Source of the DNA: Escherichia coli
Lineage (GTDB): Bacteria; Pseudomonadota; Gammaproteobacteria; Enterobacterales; Enterobacteriaceae
DNA: 64,000 nucleotides
Direction: 5' to 3' (one strand)
NCBI RefSeq assembly: GCF_003334765.1
Contig: NZ_QOWT01000014.1
The notes beneath the pieces are model-generated. The model ran no database searches and had not been told where the DNA came from. It saw nothing but the letters and a program-made list of their open reading frames with translations. The stretch's first letter is position 1. Every line of letters begins with the position of its first letter. Below are positions 10,186 through 52,867 of the stretch, one piece after another. The translations under genes were made by a program, and so were the position numbers.

Positions 10186-10430
10186 ACACTGCCGGATGCG
10201 GCGCGAGCGCCTTATCCGGCCTACGGGTCGGCAACAGTTGTAGGCCTGATAAGACGCGACAGCGTCGCATCAGGCATTGATTGCCGGATGCGGCACAAGT
10301 GCCTTATCCGGCCTACAGGTCGGCAATAGTTGTAGGCCTGATAAGACGCGACAGCGTCGCATCAGGCATTGATTGCCGGATGCGGCGCGAGCGCCTTATC
10401 CGGCCTACGGGTCGTGCATCCGACAACACC
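10186..10430. repeat. BIME: tandem array of about 2.5 units of a 92-bp REP-containing repeat
   Basis: ccggatgcggcgcgagcgccttatccggcctacgggtcggcaacagttgtaggcctgataagacgcgacagcgtcgcatcaggcattgattg repeats starting at 10192, 10284, 10376 with a few substitutions. Confidence 0.9.
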
Positions 10431-44493: not shown

Positions 44494-46317
44494 TTAATCG
44501 TCTTTCGGTGCGCGGTTGGCGCGGCGACGATCGTTTTCCGTCAGGTGACGTTTACGAATACGGATAGAGGTCGGAGTCACTTCTACCAGTTCGTCATCAT
44601 CGATGAACTCCAGAGCTTGTTCCAGAGTCATGCGGATAGGCGGAACCAGAACAACGGCTTCGTCAGTACCGGAAGCACGCATGTTGGTCAGTTTCTTACC
44701 GGTCAGGCAGTTTACAGTCAGGTCGTTAGAGCGGCTATGAATACCGATAATCTGACCTTCGTAAACTTCTGCACCGTGACCGAGGAACAGCTTACCGCGA
44801 TCCTGCAGACCGAACAGCGCGAACGCGACCGCTTTACCCTGACCGTTAGAGATCAGTACGCCGTTCTGACGCTGACCCACTTCACCCGGACGTACGTCGT
44901 CGTAGTGGCTGAAGGTGGAGTACAGCAGACCAGTACCGGAAGTCATGGTCATGAACTCAGAACGGAAGCCAATCAGACCACGGCTTGGGATCACGTAGTC
45001 GAGACGTACGCGGCCTTTACCGTCTGGATTCATGTTTTTCAGGTCGCCTTTACGTTCGCCCAGCGCCTGCATTACAGAACCCTGATGCTGTTCTTCAACG
45101 TCCAGAGTCACGTTTTCATACGGCTCTTGTTTACGACCGTCGATTTCACGGAAGATAACTTTCGGACGGGATACCGCCAGTTCGAAACCTTCACGACGCA
45201 TGTTTTCGATCAGAACAGACAGGTGCAGTTCGCCACGACCAGAAACGCGGAACGCATCGGCGTCTTCGGTTTCTTCTACGCGCAGCGCAACGTTGTGTAC
45301 CAGTTCTTTGTTCAGACGATCCAGGATCTGACGAGACGTTACGAACTTACCTTCTTTACCGCAGAACGGCGAGGTGTTAACGCAGAAGAACATAGAAACG
45401 GTCGGCTCATCAACGGAGAGTGCCGGCAGCGCTTCAACGTTTTGCGTGTCGCAAACGGTGTCAGAAATGTTCAGTTCGCCAAGGCCCGTGATCGCAACGA
45501 TATCGCCAGCTTCCGCCAGATCGGTTTCGATACGTTCCAGACCGAGGTGGCCCAGCACTTTACCGACTTTCGCGTTGCGGGTTTTGCCTTCGCTATCGAT
45601 GATAGTGACCTGCTGGTTCGGCTTCACTTTACCGCGCTTGATGCGGCCAATGCCGATAACGCCAACATAGCTGTTGTAATCGAGCTGAGAAATCTGCATC
45701 TGGAACGGACCGTCAAGGTCAACGTCCGGCGCAGGAACGTGGTCAACAATCGCCTGGTACAGCGGGGTCATGTCTTCCGCCATATCTTCGTGGTCCAGAC
45801 CCGCGATACCGTTCAGCGCAGAAGCGTAAACGATCGGGAAGTCCAGCTGCTCGTCGGTCGCGTCGAGGTTAACGAACAGATCGAATACCTGATCCACAAC
45901 CCAATCAGGACGCGCGCCAGGGCGGTCAACTTTGTTGATAACAACAATCGGCTTCAGGCCGTAAGCAAACGCTTTTTTGGTTACGAAGCGCGTTTGCGGC
46001 ATCGGGCCGTCAAATGCGTCAACCACCAGCAGCACTGAGTCTACCATGGACATTACACGTTCAACTTCACCACCGAAGTCGGCGTGCCCCGGGGTATCAA
46101 CGATGTTGATACGGTAATCATTCCATTTGATAGCGGTGTTTTTCGCGAGGATGGTAATCCCACGCTCTTTCTCCAAATCGTTGGAGTCCATCACGCGCTC
46201 TTGGGTTTCGGCACGAGAGTCGAACGTACCGGATTGTTGGAGCAGCTTGTCTACCAGGGTGGTTTTACCATGGTCTACGTGCGCGATGATGGCGATATTA
46301 CGCAATTTTTCGATCAC
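44494..46317 (-). CDS. typA: Ribosome-associated translational GTPase TypA/BipA
   Basis: 607 aa; G1 motif [21 protein letters not shown]-like domain architecture. Confidence 0.96.
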
Positions 46318-46468
46318 AACTTTGCCTCAGGCATTAGAAATAGCGCGTTATTGTACACGGATTAATCGCACTACAAAACAGGATCACAAACATCCTCCGC
46401 AAACAAGTATTGCAGAGTCCCTTTGTGATCGCTTTCACGGAGCATAAAAAGGGTTATCCAAAGGTCAT

Positions 46469-46559
46469 TGCACCAACATGGTGCTTAATGTTTCCATTGA
46501 AGCACTATATTGGTGCAACATTCACATCGTGGTGCAGCCCTTTTGCACGATGGTGCGCA
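46469..46559 (+). promoter_or_regulatory. NtrC enhancer sites upstream of glnAp2
   Basis: TGCACCAacaTGGTGCT (46469-46485), aGCACtAtatTGGTGCA (46501-46517), TTGCACgatGGTGCGCA (46543-46559) match TGCACCA-N3-TGGTGCA; centred about -140 and -108 from the predicted start. Confidence 0.7.
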
Positions 46560-46590
46560 TGATAACGCCTTTTAGGGGCAATTTAAAAGT

Positions 46591-46606
46591 TGGCACAGAT
46601 TTCGCT
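46591..46606 (+). promoter_or_regulatory. Sigma-54 promoter glnAp2
   Basis: TGGCAC-agatt-TCGCT matches the -24 GG / -12 GC sigma-54 consensus. Confidence 0.8.
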
Positions 46607-46689
46607 TTATCTTTTTTACGGCGACACGGCCAAAATAATTGCAGATTTCGTTACCACGACGACCATGACCAATCCAGGAGAGTTAAAGT

Positions 46690-48099
46690 ATGTCCGCTGA
46701 ACACGTACTGACGATGCTGAACGAGCACGAAGTGAAGTTTGTTGATTTGCGCTTCACCGATACTAAAGGTAAAGAACAGCACGTCACTATCCCTGCTCAT
46801 CAGGTGAATGCTGAATTCTTCGAAGAAGGCAAAATGTTTGACGGCTCCTCGATTGGCGGCTGGAAAGGCATTAACGAGTCCGACATGGTGCTGATGCCAG
46901 ACGCATCCACCGCAGTGATTGACCCGTTCTTCGCCGACTCCACCCTGATTATCCGTTGCGACATCCTTGAACCTGGCACCCTGCAAGGCTATGACCGTGA
47001 CCCGCGCTCCATTGCGAAGCGCGCCGAAGATTACCTGCGTTCCACTGGCATTGCCGACACCGTACTGTTCGGGCCAGAACCTGAATTCTTCCTGTTCGAT
47101 GACATCCGTTTCGGATCATCTATCTCCGGTTCCCACGTTGCTATCGACGATATCGAAGGCGCATGGAACTCCTCCACCCAATACGAAGGTGGTAACAAAG
47201 GTCACCGTCCGGCAGTGAAAGGCGGTTACTTCCCGGTTCCACCGGTAGACTCGGCTCAGGATATTCGTTCTGAAATGTGTCTGGTGATGGAACAGATGGG
47301 TCTGGTGGTTGAAGCCCATCACCACGAAGTAGCGACTGCTGGTCAGAACGAAGTGGCTACCCGCTTCAATACCATGACCAAAAAAGCTGACGAAATTCAG
47401 ATCTACAAATATGTTGTGCACAACGTAGCGCACCGCTTCGGTAAAACCGCGACCTTTATGCCAAAACCGATGTTCGGTGATAACGGCTCCGGTATGCACT
47501 GCCACATGTCTCTGTCTAAAAACGGCGTTAACCTGTTCGCAGGCGACAAATACGCAGGTCTGTCTGAGCAGGCGCTGTACTACATTGGCGGCGTAATCAA
47601 ACACGCTAAAGCGATTAACGCCCTGGCAAACCCGACCACCAACTCTTATAAGCGTCTGGTCCCGGGCTATGAAGCACCGGTAATGCTGGCTTACTCTGCG
47701 CGTAACCGTTCTGCGTCTATCCGTATTCCGGTGGTTTCTTCTCCGAAAGCACGTCGTATCGAAGTACGTTTCCCGGATCCGGCAGCTAACCCGTACCTGT
47801 GCTTTGCTGCCCTGCTGATGGCCGGTCTTGATGGTATCAAGAACAAGATCCATCCGGGCGAAGCCATGGACAAAAACCTGTATGACCTGCCGCCAGAAGA
47901 AGCGAAAGAGATCCCACAGGTTGCAGGCTCTCTGGAAGAAGCACTGAACGAACTGGATCTGGACCGCGAGTTCCTGAAAGCCGGTGGCGTGTTCACTGAC
48001 GAAGCAATTGATGCGTACATCGCTCTGCGTCGCGAAGAAGATGACCGCGTGCGTATGACTCCGCATCCGGTAGAGTTTGAGCTGTACTACAGCGTCTAA
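46690..48099 (+). CDS. glnA: Glutamine synthetase (type I)
   Basis: 469 aa [40 protein letters not shown]...; adenylylation-site region NLYDLPPEE. Confidence 0.97.
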
Positions 48100-48167
48100 G
48101 TGTTTTAGTTGCCGTGGAAACTTTTCGCCTGTCTCTGGCAGGCCTGGGATCGGTGGCAAGCACATCA

Positions 48168-48228
48168 CGCCGGATGCGACGCAAATGCGTCTTATCCGGC
48201 CTACACGGTGATGATGTGGTAGGCCGGA
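48168..48228. repeat. REP element in glnA 3' UTR
   Basis: gccggatgcgacgcaaatgcgtcttatccggcctac followed by partial inverted copy gtaggccgg. Confidence 0.85.
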
Positions 48229-48272
48229 GCAGGTGAGTCGCTCTCCAACGTGAAGTTTGTCAGCTATCTGTA

Positions 48273-48296
48273 GCCCATCTCTGCATGGGCTTTTTT
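48273..48296 (+). terminator. Intrinsic terminator of glnA
   Basis: GCCCAT-ctctgc-ATGGGC hairpin followed by TTTTTT. Confidence 0.85.
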
Positions 48297-48342
48297 CTCC
48301 GTCAATTCTCTGATGCTTCGCGCTTTTTATCCGTAAAAAGCT

Positions 48343-48364
48343 ATAATGCACTAAAATGGTGCAA
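48343..48364 (+). promoter_or_regulatory. glnL promoter (-10 TATAAT) overlapped by an NtrC-type site
   Basis: tataat at 48343-48348; TGCACtaaaaTGGTGCA at 48348-48364. Confidence 0.6.
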
Positions 48365-48384
48365 CCTGTTCAGGAGACTGCTTT

Positions 48385-49434
48385 ATGGCAACAGGCACGC
48401 AGCCCGATGCTGGGCAGATCCTCAACTCGCTGATTAACAGTATTTTGTTAATCGATGACAACCTGGCGATCCATTACGCCAACCCTGCCGCGCAACAACT
48501 GCTCGCCCAAAGCTCCCGCAAATTGTTTGGTACACCGTTACCGGAACTGTTGAGCTACTTCTCATTAAATATCGAGCTGATGCAAGAAAGTCTGGAGGCG
48601 GGGCAAGGTTTTACCGATAACGAAGTGACGCTGGTCATCGACGGGCGCTCGCATATCCTTTCTGTGACGGCCCAGCGTATGCCGGACGGCATGATCCTGC
48701 TGGAGATGGCTCCGATGGATAACCAGCGCCGCTTAAGTCAGGAACAGCTACAGCACGCCCAGCAGGTTGCTGCCCGTGATTTAGTGCGCGGCCTGGCACA
48801 TGAGATTAAAAATCCGCTTGGCGGTTTACGTGGCGCGGCGCAGCTGCTCAGCAAAGCGTTACCTGACCCATCACTACTCGAATATACCAAAGTGATTATC
48901 GAACAGGCGGACCGGCTGCGAAATCTGGTCGACCGTCTGTTGGGGCCGCAGCTGCCCGGTACGCGCGTTACCGAAAGTATTCACAAAGTGGCTGAACGCG
49001 TGGTAACGCTGGTGTCGATGGAACTGCCGGACAACGTGCGGTTGATTCGTGATTACGATCCCAGCCTACCGGAACTGGCGCACGACCCGGATCAAATTGA
49101 ACAGGTCTTGCTGAATATTGTGCGCAATGCGCTACAGGCGCTGGGGCCGGAAGGCGGTGAAATCATTCTGCGTACCCGCACCGCGTTTCAACTGACCTTA
49201 CACGGCGAGCGCTACCGGCTGGCGGCGCGGATTGATGTGGAAGATAACGGGCCGGGCATTCCGCCTCATTTGCAGGATACGCTGTTTTACCCGATGGTCA
49301 GCGGCCGCGAAGGTGGCACCGGGCTTGGCTTATCCATCGCTCGTAATTTGATTGATCAGCATTCAGGCAAAATTGAATTTACCAGTTGGCCAGGGCATAC
49401 CGAGTTCTCGGTTTACCTGCCTATCAGGAAATAA
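48385..49434 (+). CDS. glnL: Nitrogen-regulation sensor kinase NtrB
   Basis: 349 aa; PAS-like N-terminus, H-box ([17 protein letters not shown]), HATPase motifs. Confidence 0.95.
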
Positions 49435-49445
49435 AGGTGACGTTT

Positions 49446-50855
49446 ATGCAACGAGGGATAGTCTGGGTAGTCGATGACGATAGTTCCATCCGTTGGGTGC
49501 TTGAACGTGCGCTCGCTGGGGCAGGTTTAACCTGTACGACGTTTGAGAACGGCGCAGAAGTGCTGGAGGCGCTGGCGAGCAAAACGCCGGATGTGCTGCT
49601 TTCAGATATCCGTATGCCGGGAATGGACGGGCTGGCGCTGCTCAAGCAGATTAAACAGCGCCATCCAATGCTTCCGGTCATCATTATGACCGCACATTCC
49701 GATCTGGATGCTGCCGTCAGCGCCTATCAACAAGGGGCGTTTGATTATCTGCCCAAACCGTTTGATATCGACGAAGCAGTGGCGCTGGTTGAGCGCGCTA
49801 TCAGTCATTACCAGGAACAGCAGCAGCCGCGTAATGTTCAGCTTAACGGCCCAACGACCGATATCATCGGCGAAGCGCCAGCCATGCAGGACGTGTTCCG
49901 TATTATCGGTCGGCTTTCGCGTTCTTCTATTAGCGTGCTGATTAACGGCGAATCCGGCACCGGTAAAGAACTGGTCGCTCATGCCCTGCATCGCCACAGT
50001 CCGCGCGCCAAAGCGCCGTTTATCGCGCTGAATATGGCAGCTATCCCAAAAGATTTGATCGAATCAGAACTGTTTGGCCACGAGAAAGGCGCGTTTACTG
50101 GCGCGAATACCATTCGTCAGGGGCGTTTTGAACAGGCCGATGGCGGTACATTATTCCTCGACGAAATTGGTGATATGCCGCTGGATGTGCAGACGCGTTT
50201 GCTGCGCGTGCTGGCAGACGGTCAGTTTTACCGCGTTGGCGGCTATGCGCCGGTGAAAGTGGATGTGCGGATTATCGCTGCCACTCACCAGAATCTCGAA
50301 CAGCGAGTGCAGGAAGGTAAGTTCCGTGAGGATCTGTTCCACCGCCTGAACGTTATCCGCGTTCATCTGCCGCCGCTGCGCGAACGTCGGGAAGATATTC
50401 CCCGTCTGGCGCGCCATTTTTTACAGGTTGCCGCGCGCGAACTGGGCGTAGAAGCGAAGTTACTGCATCCGGAAACCGAAGCTGCTCTGACGCGTCTGGC
50501 GTGGCCAGGCAACGTGCGCCAGCTGGAAAACACCTGCCGCTGGCTAACGGTGATGGCCGCCGGGCAGGAAGTGTTGATTCAGGATTTGCCCGGCGAACTG
50601 TTTGAATCAACGGTTGCGGAGAGTACTTCGCAAATGCAACCGGACAGCTGGGCGACGCTTCTTGCGCAGTGGGCAGACAGAGCGCTGCGTTCCGGTCATC
50701 AAAATCTGCTTTCCGAAGCGCAGCCAGAGCTGGAGCGGACGTTACTGACGACCGCGTTGCGACATACGCAGGGGCATAAACAGGAAGCGGCGCGGCTACT
50801 CGGCTGGGGCCGCAACACCCTGACGCGTAAGTTAAAAGAGCTGGGGATGGAGTGA
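49446..50855 (+). CDS. glnG: Sigma-54-dependent response regulator NtrC
   Basis: Track ORF 49386..50855 over-extended; start at ATG 49446 ([23 protein letters not shown]); receiver domain, AAA+ Walker A (GESGTGKE), GAFTGA motif, C-terminal HTH; 469 aa. Confidence 0.93.
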
Positions 50856-50966
50856 TTCACAGCTTGTGTGTAAAGATTGATTATTGAGCGCAAATTGCTG
50901 GTATTTTACGCTTTACTGTTCCGATAAGTTCAGTATGATCTTGCCCGGAAAACGGGGAGAGTCATT

Positions 50967-51077
50967 ATGCTGGAATCAATAATTAATCTGGTATCGAGTG
51001 GCGCAGTTGACAGCCACACACCGCAAACTGCCGTTGCTGCCGTGCTGTGTGCCGCAATGATTGGGCTGTTTAGCTGA
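50967..51077 (+). CDS. yshB: Small protein YshB (36 aa), below the ORF-track size cutoff
   Basis: ATG preceded by GGGGAGAG Shine-Dalgarno; translation MLESIINLVSSGAVDSHTPQTAVAAVLCAAMIGLFS with hydrophobic C-terminal half. Confidence 0.6.
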   Translation: MLESIINLVSSGAVDSHTPQTAVAAVLCAAMIGLFS

Positions 51078-51090
51078 AGCTCGTTGTTTA

Positions 51091-51194
51091 TGCCGGATGC
51101 GGAGAAAGTCGTAGGCCTGATAAGACGCGACCAGCGCCGCATCAGGCATCATGCTCAGATGCCTGATGCGGCGTAAACGCCTTATCCGGCCTAC
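51091..51194. repeat. BIME (three REP copies)
   Basis: tgccggatgcggagaaagtcgtaggcctgataagacgcgaccagcgccgcatcaggca ... gatgcctgatgcggcgtaaacgccttatccggcctac. Confidence 0.88.
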
Positions 51195-51305
51195 AAAAGC
51201 AATAATTTCAACAGGTTTTGTTGCCCAGCGCATCAGGCAATCTTGTTCTCAGCACATTGATGGCGCTTTCGTTTTCTACTTTGTAAACGAAGCGCCATTC
51301 ACTAT

Positions 51306-52679
51306 TTAAATCACCCGAGAGAACTGCTGCATCCGCGCTTTCTGGCGCAGATAGGTATCAAAGCACATGCAAATGTTGCGGATCAGCAAGCGACCTTTCG
51401 CCGTCACCTGTATTCCCTTCTCATCCACATCCACCAGCCCATCTTTTGCTAACGGGGCGAGCAGCTTGAGATCTTCCGCAAAGTAATCAGCGAAGTGCAA
51501 ATCCCACTGTTTCTCAATAGGGGCGTAATCCAGACGGAAGTTGCAGATGAGCGACTTAATCACATCGCGGCGAATACAGTCATCACGCGTTAGCGCAATA
51601 CCACGCCACAGCGCATTGCCTTGTTCATCCACTTGCTGATAGTACTGCTTCAACTCTTTCTGGTTCTGCGCGTAGCAGTCGCCAATCATGCTGATGGCGG
51701 AAACGCCCATCCCCAGCAGATCGGTATCGCCCTGAGTGGTGTAGCCCTGGAAGTTACGATGCAGCACGCCTTCACGCTGGGCCACCGCCAGCTCGTCATC
51801 CGGACGGGCAAAGTGATCCATACCGATAAACTGATAGCCCGATTGCGTCAGGAAGGCGATGGTTTCCTGCAGGATATCGAGTTTTTGCTGCGGACTCGGC
51901 AGGTCAGCATCTTTGATTTTGCGCTGAGCAGCAAAAATGGTCGGCAGATGCGCGTAGTTAAAGACACTCAGACGATCGGGGTTCAGCTCCGCCACACGTT
52001 TCAGGGTAAAGGCGAAACTCTCCGGCGTCTGTTTCGGCAGGCCGTAAATCAGGTCGATGTTGGTGGAGGTAAAACCAATCTCACGCGCATGGTTAAGCAG
52101 TGCAAAGATGAACTCTTCATCCTGCTCGCGGTTAACCAGACGTTGCACTTCTTTGTTGAAGTCCTGCACGCCCATGCTCAGGCGATTAAAGCCTTCGGCG
52201 CGTAAATGATCGAGTACATCCAGTTCGATTTCCCGCGGATCGACTTCGATCGAAATCTCCGCATCGGCATTGAACTGGAAGTTTTCGCGCAGCAGCTTCA
52301 TCAGGCGGCTGATTTGCGCTTTATTCAGATACGTCGGCGTTCCGCCGCCCCAGTGCAATTGGCTGACGTGACGCCCGGCGAACAGCGGTGCACGATGGAC
52401 GATTTCTTGCTCCAGCGCGTCCAGATACTGATCGGCCTTGTGCTGCTGGCGAGTAACAATCTTATTGCAACCGCAGAAGTAACAAAGCTTATGGCAGAAC
52501 GGGATATGTACGTAGAGAGATAATGGACGCTCAGGATAGCGCGCCACGGCTTGTAAAAACGCCTGTTCGCCGAAGTCTTCTGAAAACTCCAGCGCGGTCG
52601 GGTACGAGGTGTATCGTGGCCCGGAATAGTTATATTTCTGGATCAGGGCCAGATCCCAGTCGATTTGCTGTACAGACAT
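51306..52679 (-). CDS. hemN: Oxygen-independent coproporphyrinogen III oxidase (radical SAM)
   Basis: Start at MSVQQIDWDLALIQKYNYSGPRYTSYPTALEF; radical-SAM CxxxCxxC (CHKLCYFCGC); 457 aa. Confidence 0.93.
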   Translation of the reverse strand: MSVQQIDWDLALIQKYNYSGPRYTSYPTALEFSEDFGEQAFLQAVARYPERPLSLYVHIPFCHKLCYFCGCNKIVTRQQHKADQYLDALEQEIVHRAPLFAGRHVSQLHWGGGTPTYLNKAQISRLMKLLRENFQFNADAEISIEVDPREIELDVLDHLRAEGFNRLSMGVQDFNKEVQRLVNREQDEEFIFALLNHAREIGFTSTNIDLIYGLPKQTPESFAFTLKRVAELNPDRLSVFNYAHLPTIFAAQRKIKDADLPSPQQKLDILQETIAFLTQSGYQFIGMDHFARPDDELAVAQREGVLHRNFQGYTTQGDTDLLGMGVSAISMIGDCYAQNQKELKQYYQQVDEQGNALWRGIALTRDDCIRRDVIKSLICNFRLDYAPIEKQWDLHFADYFAEDLKLLAPLAKDGLVDVDEKGIQVTAKGRLLIRNICMCFDTYLRQKARMQQFSRVI

Positions 52680-52867
52680 GCTCACTCCTTCCGATGGCGT
52701 CTCTGGCGGCTACGGCGTACCGGCGGATGCCCGTTTCGGGTCATCAGCCGGTTGCGCAGCCACTTTTGTCGCCGCGACAACCGCTGTAGTTTAACGAATA
52801 ACCACACCAGATAACATATAACCGGAAGGGTTATCAGCAGAACGGGAAGGCCCACGGCGGCAATCCG

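Follow-up and report, generated by a model that had tools for sequence, protein, structure and literature searches.

Does the DNA between typA and glnA in the 64,000-nucleotide stretch of Escherichia coli sequence analysed here (hereafter, the window) carry a sigma-54 promoter with an NtrC enhancer, and do the motif matches that point to one amount to more than coincidence? Window positions 46100-46900 read as the spacer between typA and glnA together with the beginning of glnA. Enhancer-dependent architecture was first defined at the glnALG control region of E. coli K-12, and the locus in the window is almost certainly the glnALG control region of E. coli, comprising the sigma-54 promoter glnAp2, the NtrC enhancer and the NtrC-repressed promoter glnLp. 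This architecture is already known, is base for base that of K-12, and is ordinary.

The open reading frame map places typA on the minus strand (44494-46317), divergent from glnA, which encodes the 469-aa glutamine synthetase on the plus strand (46690-48099, in agreement with the K-12 annotation). The two plus-strand genes glnL (NtrB; 48385-49434) and glnG (NtrC; 49446-50855) are identical to those of K-12 and provide the kinase and the activator acting on sites within the glnALG control region. When window positions 43724-52724 were compared with the reverse complement of NC_000913.3 4052000-4061000, there were 0 mismatches in 9001 bases, and this identical block corresponds to the hemN-glnG-glnL-glnA-bipA segment of E. 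coli K-12 MG1655. The glnALG locus is therefore without any difference from K-12 at glnAp1, glnAp2 and glnLp; K-12 likewise has the -24/-12 element, the NtrC sites at -140 and -108, the CRP site, the operator at glnLp and the K-12-type GlnZ 3'UTR. The earlier note had read the region as the sigma-54/NtrC architecture of glnA, and both the identity with K-12 and the published coordinates support this reading; it had also called the regulatory logic intact, which holds for the cis elements, glnL and glnG, all identical to K-12, with rpoN, glnB and glnD located outside the window.

Within the range from about position 10419 onwards, to which the conversion applies, a window position is converted to its K-12 coordinate by subtracting it from 4104724; relative to NC_000913.3, the numbering of U00096.2 is lower by 1977, an offset verified with the published sigma-54 motif centre. 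The window as a whole is 99.98% identical to MG1655, and its identity with MG1655 was ruled out by approximately 21 SNPs, all outside the glnALG locus, and by a REP/BIME tandem array in the rhaD-rhaA spacer (10190-10414; 92-nt period, 2.4 copies) that is about 185 nt longer than its MG1655 counterpart. Because of these differences, we consider the strain to be a very close relative of K-12 but not MG1655, so that published experimental data are carried over via the sequence identity of the glnALG locus. A 601-base query from the region was found in all 5426 of 5426 complete E. coli genomes, in one copy each, and the lowest identity to it among the records listed was 96.8%.

The -24/-12 element of glnAp2, TTGGCACAGATTTCGCT, occupies 46590-46606 on the plus strand and was identified by consensus, by position weight matrix (PWM), by correspondence with the ChIP-seq site OS37 and by conservation. 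The consensus scan recovered TGGCAC-N5-TCGCT at exactly 46591-46606, where it had been placed originally. Compared with TGGCAC-N5-TTGCW, the element TTGGCACAGATTTCGCT contains a single mismatch, C for T at -14. With transcription starting at 46617, the GG doublet (46592-46593) falls at -25/-24 and the GC doublet (46604-46605) at -13/-12, the doublets being 10 bp apart. The predicted start, 46617 on the sense strand and 73 nt before the glnA ATG, follows from the NtrC positions at -140 and -108 together with the ChIP-seq table, in which the start lies 19 nt past the motif centre. The 73-nt 5'UTR of glnA accordingly spans 46617-46689 (plus strand) and includes the Shine-Dalgarno sequence AGGAG.

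A weight-matrix scan and a comparison with mapped start sites had been proposed in the earlier note as checks on this promoter, and both agree with it. The sigma-54 PWM was derived from the 133 ChIP-seq motifs of Bonocora et al. 2015 (PMC4591121), with the two sites that lie in the window left out. The glnAp2 element scored 15.84 bits, above the training median of 14.27 and at the 79th percentile of the 133 sites, and ranked second among the approximately 128,000 positions of the window. The top-ranking position (CTGGCGCGAATTCTGCA, 23017-23033, plus strand, 17.4 bits) lies inside fdoI and is the ChIP-seq site IS47; because it is a held-out intragenic site of the same study (PMC4591121), we conclude that the matrix works. 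A sigma-54 gSELEX peak has also been reported in the fdoG-fdhD spacer, at approximately window position 18775. As for the mapped start, the geometry agrees with the published -140/-108 positions and with the 73-nt distance to glnA.

Binding data from the literature converge on the same element. The OS37 site of the sigma-54 ChIP-seq set is the identical 17-mer, TTGGCACAGATTTCGCT, with its centre at 4056149 (U00096.2), equivalent to window position 46598; the start predicted for it is 73 nt ahead of glnA, and it carries a fold-above-threshold score of 21 and the EcoCyc status 'confirmed' (PMC4591121). Genomic SELEX detected a peak of the sigma-54 holoenzyme in the glnA-typA spacer at 4,056,244, and NtrC gave a gSELEX value of 97% with its peak at 4,056,244, which maps to window position 46503 if U00096.2 coordinates were used (PMC8743547). 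The glnAp2 promoter is IHF-independent, and a bend sequence, CCCTTTT, has been proposed and described as 'centred at -73' (PMC2709558); in the window, this heptamer spans 46538-46544 (-79 to -73), a small mismatch with that description.

Upstream of the promoter lie the two dyads that make up the enhancer. NtrC (NRI) site 1, TGCACCAacaTGGTGCT, at 46469-46485, is both one half of the enhancer and the operator of glnAp1; it is centred at 46477, that is, -140 from glnAp2 and -25 from glnAp1, and has 1 mismatch among the 14 positions of TGCACCA-N3-TGGTGCA. High-affinity site 2, AGCACTAtatTGGTGCA, which the dyad scan placed at 46501-46517, is centred at 46509 (-108 from glnAp2, +7 from glnAp1) and has 2 mismatches of 14. 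The two centres, 32 bp apart, share one face of the helix. Thus, the dyads first noted about 100-140 bp upstream of the promoter are present at that distance, but they are not perfect copies of TGCACCA-N3-TGGTGCA, given the 1 and 2 mismatches.

The window positions of both sites match those published for phosphorylated NtrC, centred at -108 and -140 (PMC1865078), and the two high-affinity sites, 1 and 2, are followed downstream by low-affinity governor sites, 3 and 4 (PMC3870243). In NtrC ChIP-seq, glnALG yields a 71-fold peak, accompanied by a gel shift (PMC4066584). The interval reported for this peak by Brown et al. 2014 (PMC4066584) maps to 46606-46686 and so misses sites 1 and 2, lying some 100 nt downstream; this offset is within ChIP resolution and probably stems from the limited precision of peak calling or from cross-links formed via the loop.

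The same DNA carries a second promoter. The sigma-70, CRP-dependent and NtrC-repressed glnAp1 is located 115 bp upstream of glnAp2 (PMC1865078), a distance from which its start was placed at approximately 46502-46503 on the plus strand. The consensus scan did not call glnAp1 and detected no good match to its -35 and -10 elements, consistent with a weak promoter; its share of glnA transcription is 0.8% or less (PMC3870243). A CRP site, TGTGAtcgcttTCACG, at 46424-46439 (plus strand), about -70.5 from glnAp1, has one mismatch to TGTGA-N6-TCACA. Matches of this type and stringency number 5 in the window compared to 1.9 expected, which makes the match weak on its own; activation of glnAp1 requires a classical CRP site located upstream of it (PMC1865078). 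NtrC represses both glnAp1 and glnLp (PMC3870243, PMC9731577).

The two low-affinity sites are far more degenerate. With 5-6 mismatches, sites 3 and 4 are indistinguishable from chance by sequence and were located from their surviving half-sites. Site 3, ATTCACATCGTGGTGCA, which by number and exact position we take to be 46520-46536, is centred at -89 and has 5 mismatches with the right half-site, TGGTGCA, intact and conserved in an alignment of 15 Enterobacteriaceae sequences. Site 4, TGCACgatggtgcGCA, at 46544-46559 (centre approximately -66), retains a left half, TTGCAC, that is conserved in the same alignment, and has a right half that varies among genera and is polymorphic in E. coli. The original list of control elements was therefore not the full set, since this DNA also holds glnAp1, the CRP site and low-affinity sites 3 and 4, none of which had been listed.

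Site 4 differs between E. coli strains. Its right half, GGTGCG, is replaced by GTTAAG in approximately 41% of the 5426 complete E. coli genomes, including O157:H7, through the substitutions 46553 G>T, 46555 G>A and 46556 C>A. When these genomes were binned by identity to the O157-type 71-mer, 2067 fell at 99% or above, 162 at 95-99% and 3190 at 90-95%. Positions 46529 and 46477 were noted as variable alongside this polymorphism. Among four divergent E. coli alleles, 96.8-98.4% identical, changes in the high-affinity and promoter elements were confined to 46477, the central spacer base of site 1, and 46599, in the spacer of the -24/-12 element; in these four alleles, there were no changes at the consensus positions of site 1, site 2 or the promoter.

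An RNA antisense to this region offers a different view of the two strong dyads. The Rfam family ES222 sRNA (RF02755) matches 46399-46506 on the minus strand over its full length, with 135 bits; the match is antisense to the glnAp1 leader, has its 5' end (46506) within site 2, and spans site 1 and the CRP site in the direction of typA. A deep-sequencing candidate, ECS224, has the same 5' end and was classed as cis-antisense to the glnALG 5'UTR (Shinhara et al. 2011, PMC3175480 supplement). The dyads at 46469-46517 might accordingly serve mainly to control minus-strand transcription towards typA (bipA), with a secondary role as the glnAp2 enhancer. We consider this very unlikely: ECS224 has very little read support (1.6), no function has been reported for it (PMC3175480 supplement), and the enhancer function of these sites at glnAp2 is established (PMC1865078, PMC3870243), although the two roles are not mutually exclusive.

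Even less probable, to the point of being barely credible, is the possibility that the motif matches are coincidental and that glnA expression depends solely on a conventional sigma-70 promoter. Such a promoter, glnAp1, does exist upstream of glnA (PMC1865078), and the -24/-12 motif taken alone is not significant in 64 kb and is only suggestive. The sigma-54 IUPAC consensus with at most one mismatch has 3 matches in the window compared to 3.45 expected, and a PWM score equal to or above that of glnAp2 is expected 0.64 times per 64 kb. In a window of this length, the -24/-12 match by itself is thus no evidence, and the weight comes from the composite, the position relative to the gene, and conservation. 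Because the motif alone was not significant by either the IUPAC or the PWM measure, we adopted a composite test, namely, a sigma-54 site of at least 12 bits with two NtrC dyads centred 60-200 nt upstream. The composite occurs once in the window, at the exact position and in the exact orientation relative to glnA, and in 0 of 300 Markov-simulated windows. The NtrC dyads themselves are far from expectation: 3 with at most 2 mismatches were observed, all in the glnALG operon, against 0.20 expected, and none of the 100 shuffles reached 3. Furthermore, TTGGCACAGATTTCGCT is occupied by the sigma-54 holoenzyme in vivo (PMC4591121), whereas the contribution of glnAp1 is within the 0.8% limit given above (PMC3870243). 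The composite statistics, conservation, and published binding and promoter genetics together rule out a reading based on chance only.

Conservation was assessed with at least 120 glnA loci, collected with a degenerate pattern for the GlnA N-terminus from contigs of Proteobacteria, one genome per species; the 112 loci tested are those with at least 300 nt upstream, among the matches listed. Among these listed matches, a sense-strand sigma-54 site of at least 10 bits is present 95-260 nt before the anchor in 94 of the 112 loci (1.9 in shuffles), at least one NtrC-like dyad centred between -180 and -75 in 87 of 112 (0.4 in shuffles), and both together in 84 of the 112 proteobacterial loci (0 in shuffles), a contrast with the shuffled sequences that argues against coincidence. 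The GG and GC doublets are invariant in all 94 of the 94 glnA sigma-54 sites among the matches listed. The dyad centres lie at -140 and -108 in Enterobacteriaceae (-139 and -107 in a Klebsiella locus), and cluster at -118 or -128, and at -97, in other lineages. Across the 15 aligned Enterobacteriaceae sequences, the -24/-12 element is invariant in 15 of its 17 columns; conservation extends to the half-sites of the CRP site and of NtrC sites 1 and 2, whereas the N3 spacer of the NtrC sites varies.

This pattern also disposes of the idea, to which we give hardly any credence, that the palindromes form hairpins in RNA or DNA, acting as a terminator or attenuator, or bind another regulator: a terminator scan does flag 46470-46484 (a 6-bp stem with a T-containing tail), and any perfect dyad can fold, but no upstream gene ends on the plus strand because typA is divergent, the half-sites TGCAC and GTGCA are kept across species without co-variation and the 3-bp spacer drifts, a hallmark of protein-binding sites, the only three dyads with at most 2 mismatches in 64 kb fall in the operon that encodes NtrC, and NtrC binds the region in ChIP-seq, gel shift (PMC4066584) and gSELEX (PMC8743547). 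The hairpin or terminator reading of the dyads was ruled out by the lack of an upstream plus-strand gene end and by the conserved, non-covarying arms.

Downstream of glnA, the glnALG control region continues with the 3'UTR and glnLp. The glnA 3'UTR, or GlnZ sRNA, is of the K-12 type (~197 nt, 48103-48296, plus strand; K-12 annotation, PMC9731577), one of three 3'UTR types known at glnA among E. coli strains (PMC9731577). It contains a REP-like palindrome and, according to the terminator scan, ends in an intrinsic terminator (48272-48291) with a T-run. The sigma-70 -10 hexamer of glnLp, TATAAT (48342-48347, plus strand), is a perfect match to the consensus, and the start site was inferred from it. 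At spacings of 16-18 bp, no acceptable -35 element was found, the best candidates agreeing with TTGACA at one or two of its six positions (or three, with a spacing of 19 bp), and glnLp was not called by the consensus scan, although it is documented in the literature (PMC3870243, PMC9731577).

The NtrC operator at glnLp, TGCACTAaaaTGGTGCA, was detected by the dyad scan with 1 mismatch at 48347-48363. A dyad overlapping the -10 element had been reported at 48348-48364; it is indeed present, but one base to the left, and only its first T is common with TATAAT, so that the overlap amounts to a single base and the dyad mainly covers the expected start site. The glnLG peak of NtrC ChIP-seq (9.4-fold, 4054381-4054461 in U00096.2) maps to window positions 48286-48366 and contains the dyad (PMC4066584). 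Among 22 Enterobacterales loci with enough sequence, a dyad with at most 2 mismatches is found at the same place in 16, and in more when 3 are allowed; Enterobacterales also preserve a hexamer (TATAAT, TATACT or TACAAT) immediately next to the dyad.

The present analysis yields the presence and coordinates of the elements, the statistics, the conservation, the identity with K-12 and the agreement with binding data from the literature. For phosphorylation, oligomerisation, looping, ATP dependence and repression, the following scheme draws on established knowledge. Under nitrogen limitation, NtrB would phosphorylate NtrC, and NtrC~P dimers would fill the dyads at -140 and -108, which are separated by three helical turns, and then oligomerise. 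Looping of the approximately 100 bp of intervening DNA would bring NtrC~P into contact with the sigma-54 holoenzyme in its closed complex at 46590-46606; ATP hydrolysis would then produce the open complex, with transcription from 46617 and no need for IHF. The two dyads also cover the -35 region and the start site of glnAp1, so that NtrC binding would simultaneously shut this promoter off. The degenerate sites at about -89 and -66 would cap glnA output at high NtrC~P. At the other end of the gene, the dyad on the glnLp start site, just past the glnA/GlnZ terminator, would let NtrC repress its own basal synthesis, and read-through from glnAp2 past the glnA terminator would be expected to raise NtrB and NtrC during nitrogen starvation.

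Besides the identical K-12 locus, close relatives of this region are the glnA promoters of other Enterobacteriaceae (Citrobacter, Enterobacter, Klebsiella, E. albertii and Superficieibacter), which have the same or nearly the same 17-mer, the dyads, the CRP site and the glnLp dyad abutting the -10 element; they diverge in the right half of site 4, around the start site and over the first half of the 5'UTR. The promoters glnK, glnHp2, nac and astC likewise combine a -24/-12 element with upstream NtrC sites, and all are sigma-54-bound in the same ChIP-seq set. Unlike these four, glnAp2 functions without IHF (PMC2709558), overlaps a tandem sigma-70 promoter, has the extra governor sites and carries C, not T, at -14.

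The non-consensus C at -14 (46603) is conserved in enteric glnAp2. Across the 94 glnA promoters among the matches listed, counted with kinship ignored, this position is occupied by T in 32 (34%), C in 39, A in 12 and G in 11. Non-T bases are thus found in 62 of these 94 listed promoters, compared to T in 94% of the genome-wide sigma-54 ChIP-seq sites of E. coli. It is conceivable, if rather doubtful, that the site 4 dimorphism in E. coli shifts the ceiling of glnA expression from one lineage to another and that the avoidance of T at -14 tunes the tightness of the closed complex.

For the glnALG control region as a whole, the result is valuable as a positive control only: the paradigm of enhancer-dependent promoters was recognised from raw sequence to within one base. 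The coordinates are trustworthy for annotation and add nothing new on nitrogen regulation.

Several additional features were observed in and around the locus. Two further segments are unusually well conserved. The 17-nt segment GCATGATAACGCCTTTT (46556-46572, -61 to -45) shows almost no variation among the 15 aligned Enterobacteriaceae sequences, surpassing low-affinity sites 3 and 4 in conservation, and coincides with the reported recruitment of CRP by the sigma-54 holoenzyme at -51.5 (PMC1865078). In the 5'UTR of glnA, the 16-nt block TCGTTACCACGACGAC (46649-46664) is shared without change by the window and 12 Enterobacteriaceae loci, whereas its flanks diverge; folding of the 5'UTR, performed to explain this block, gave no stable structure (z = +0.75). 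Apart from ES222, Rfam models matched two minus-strand segments in the vicinity: STnc370 at the 3' end of typA (44441-44509; 55.6 bits, just above the threshold) and naRNA4/CssrE between yshB and hemN (51114-51191; 75 bits).
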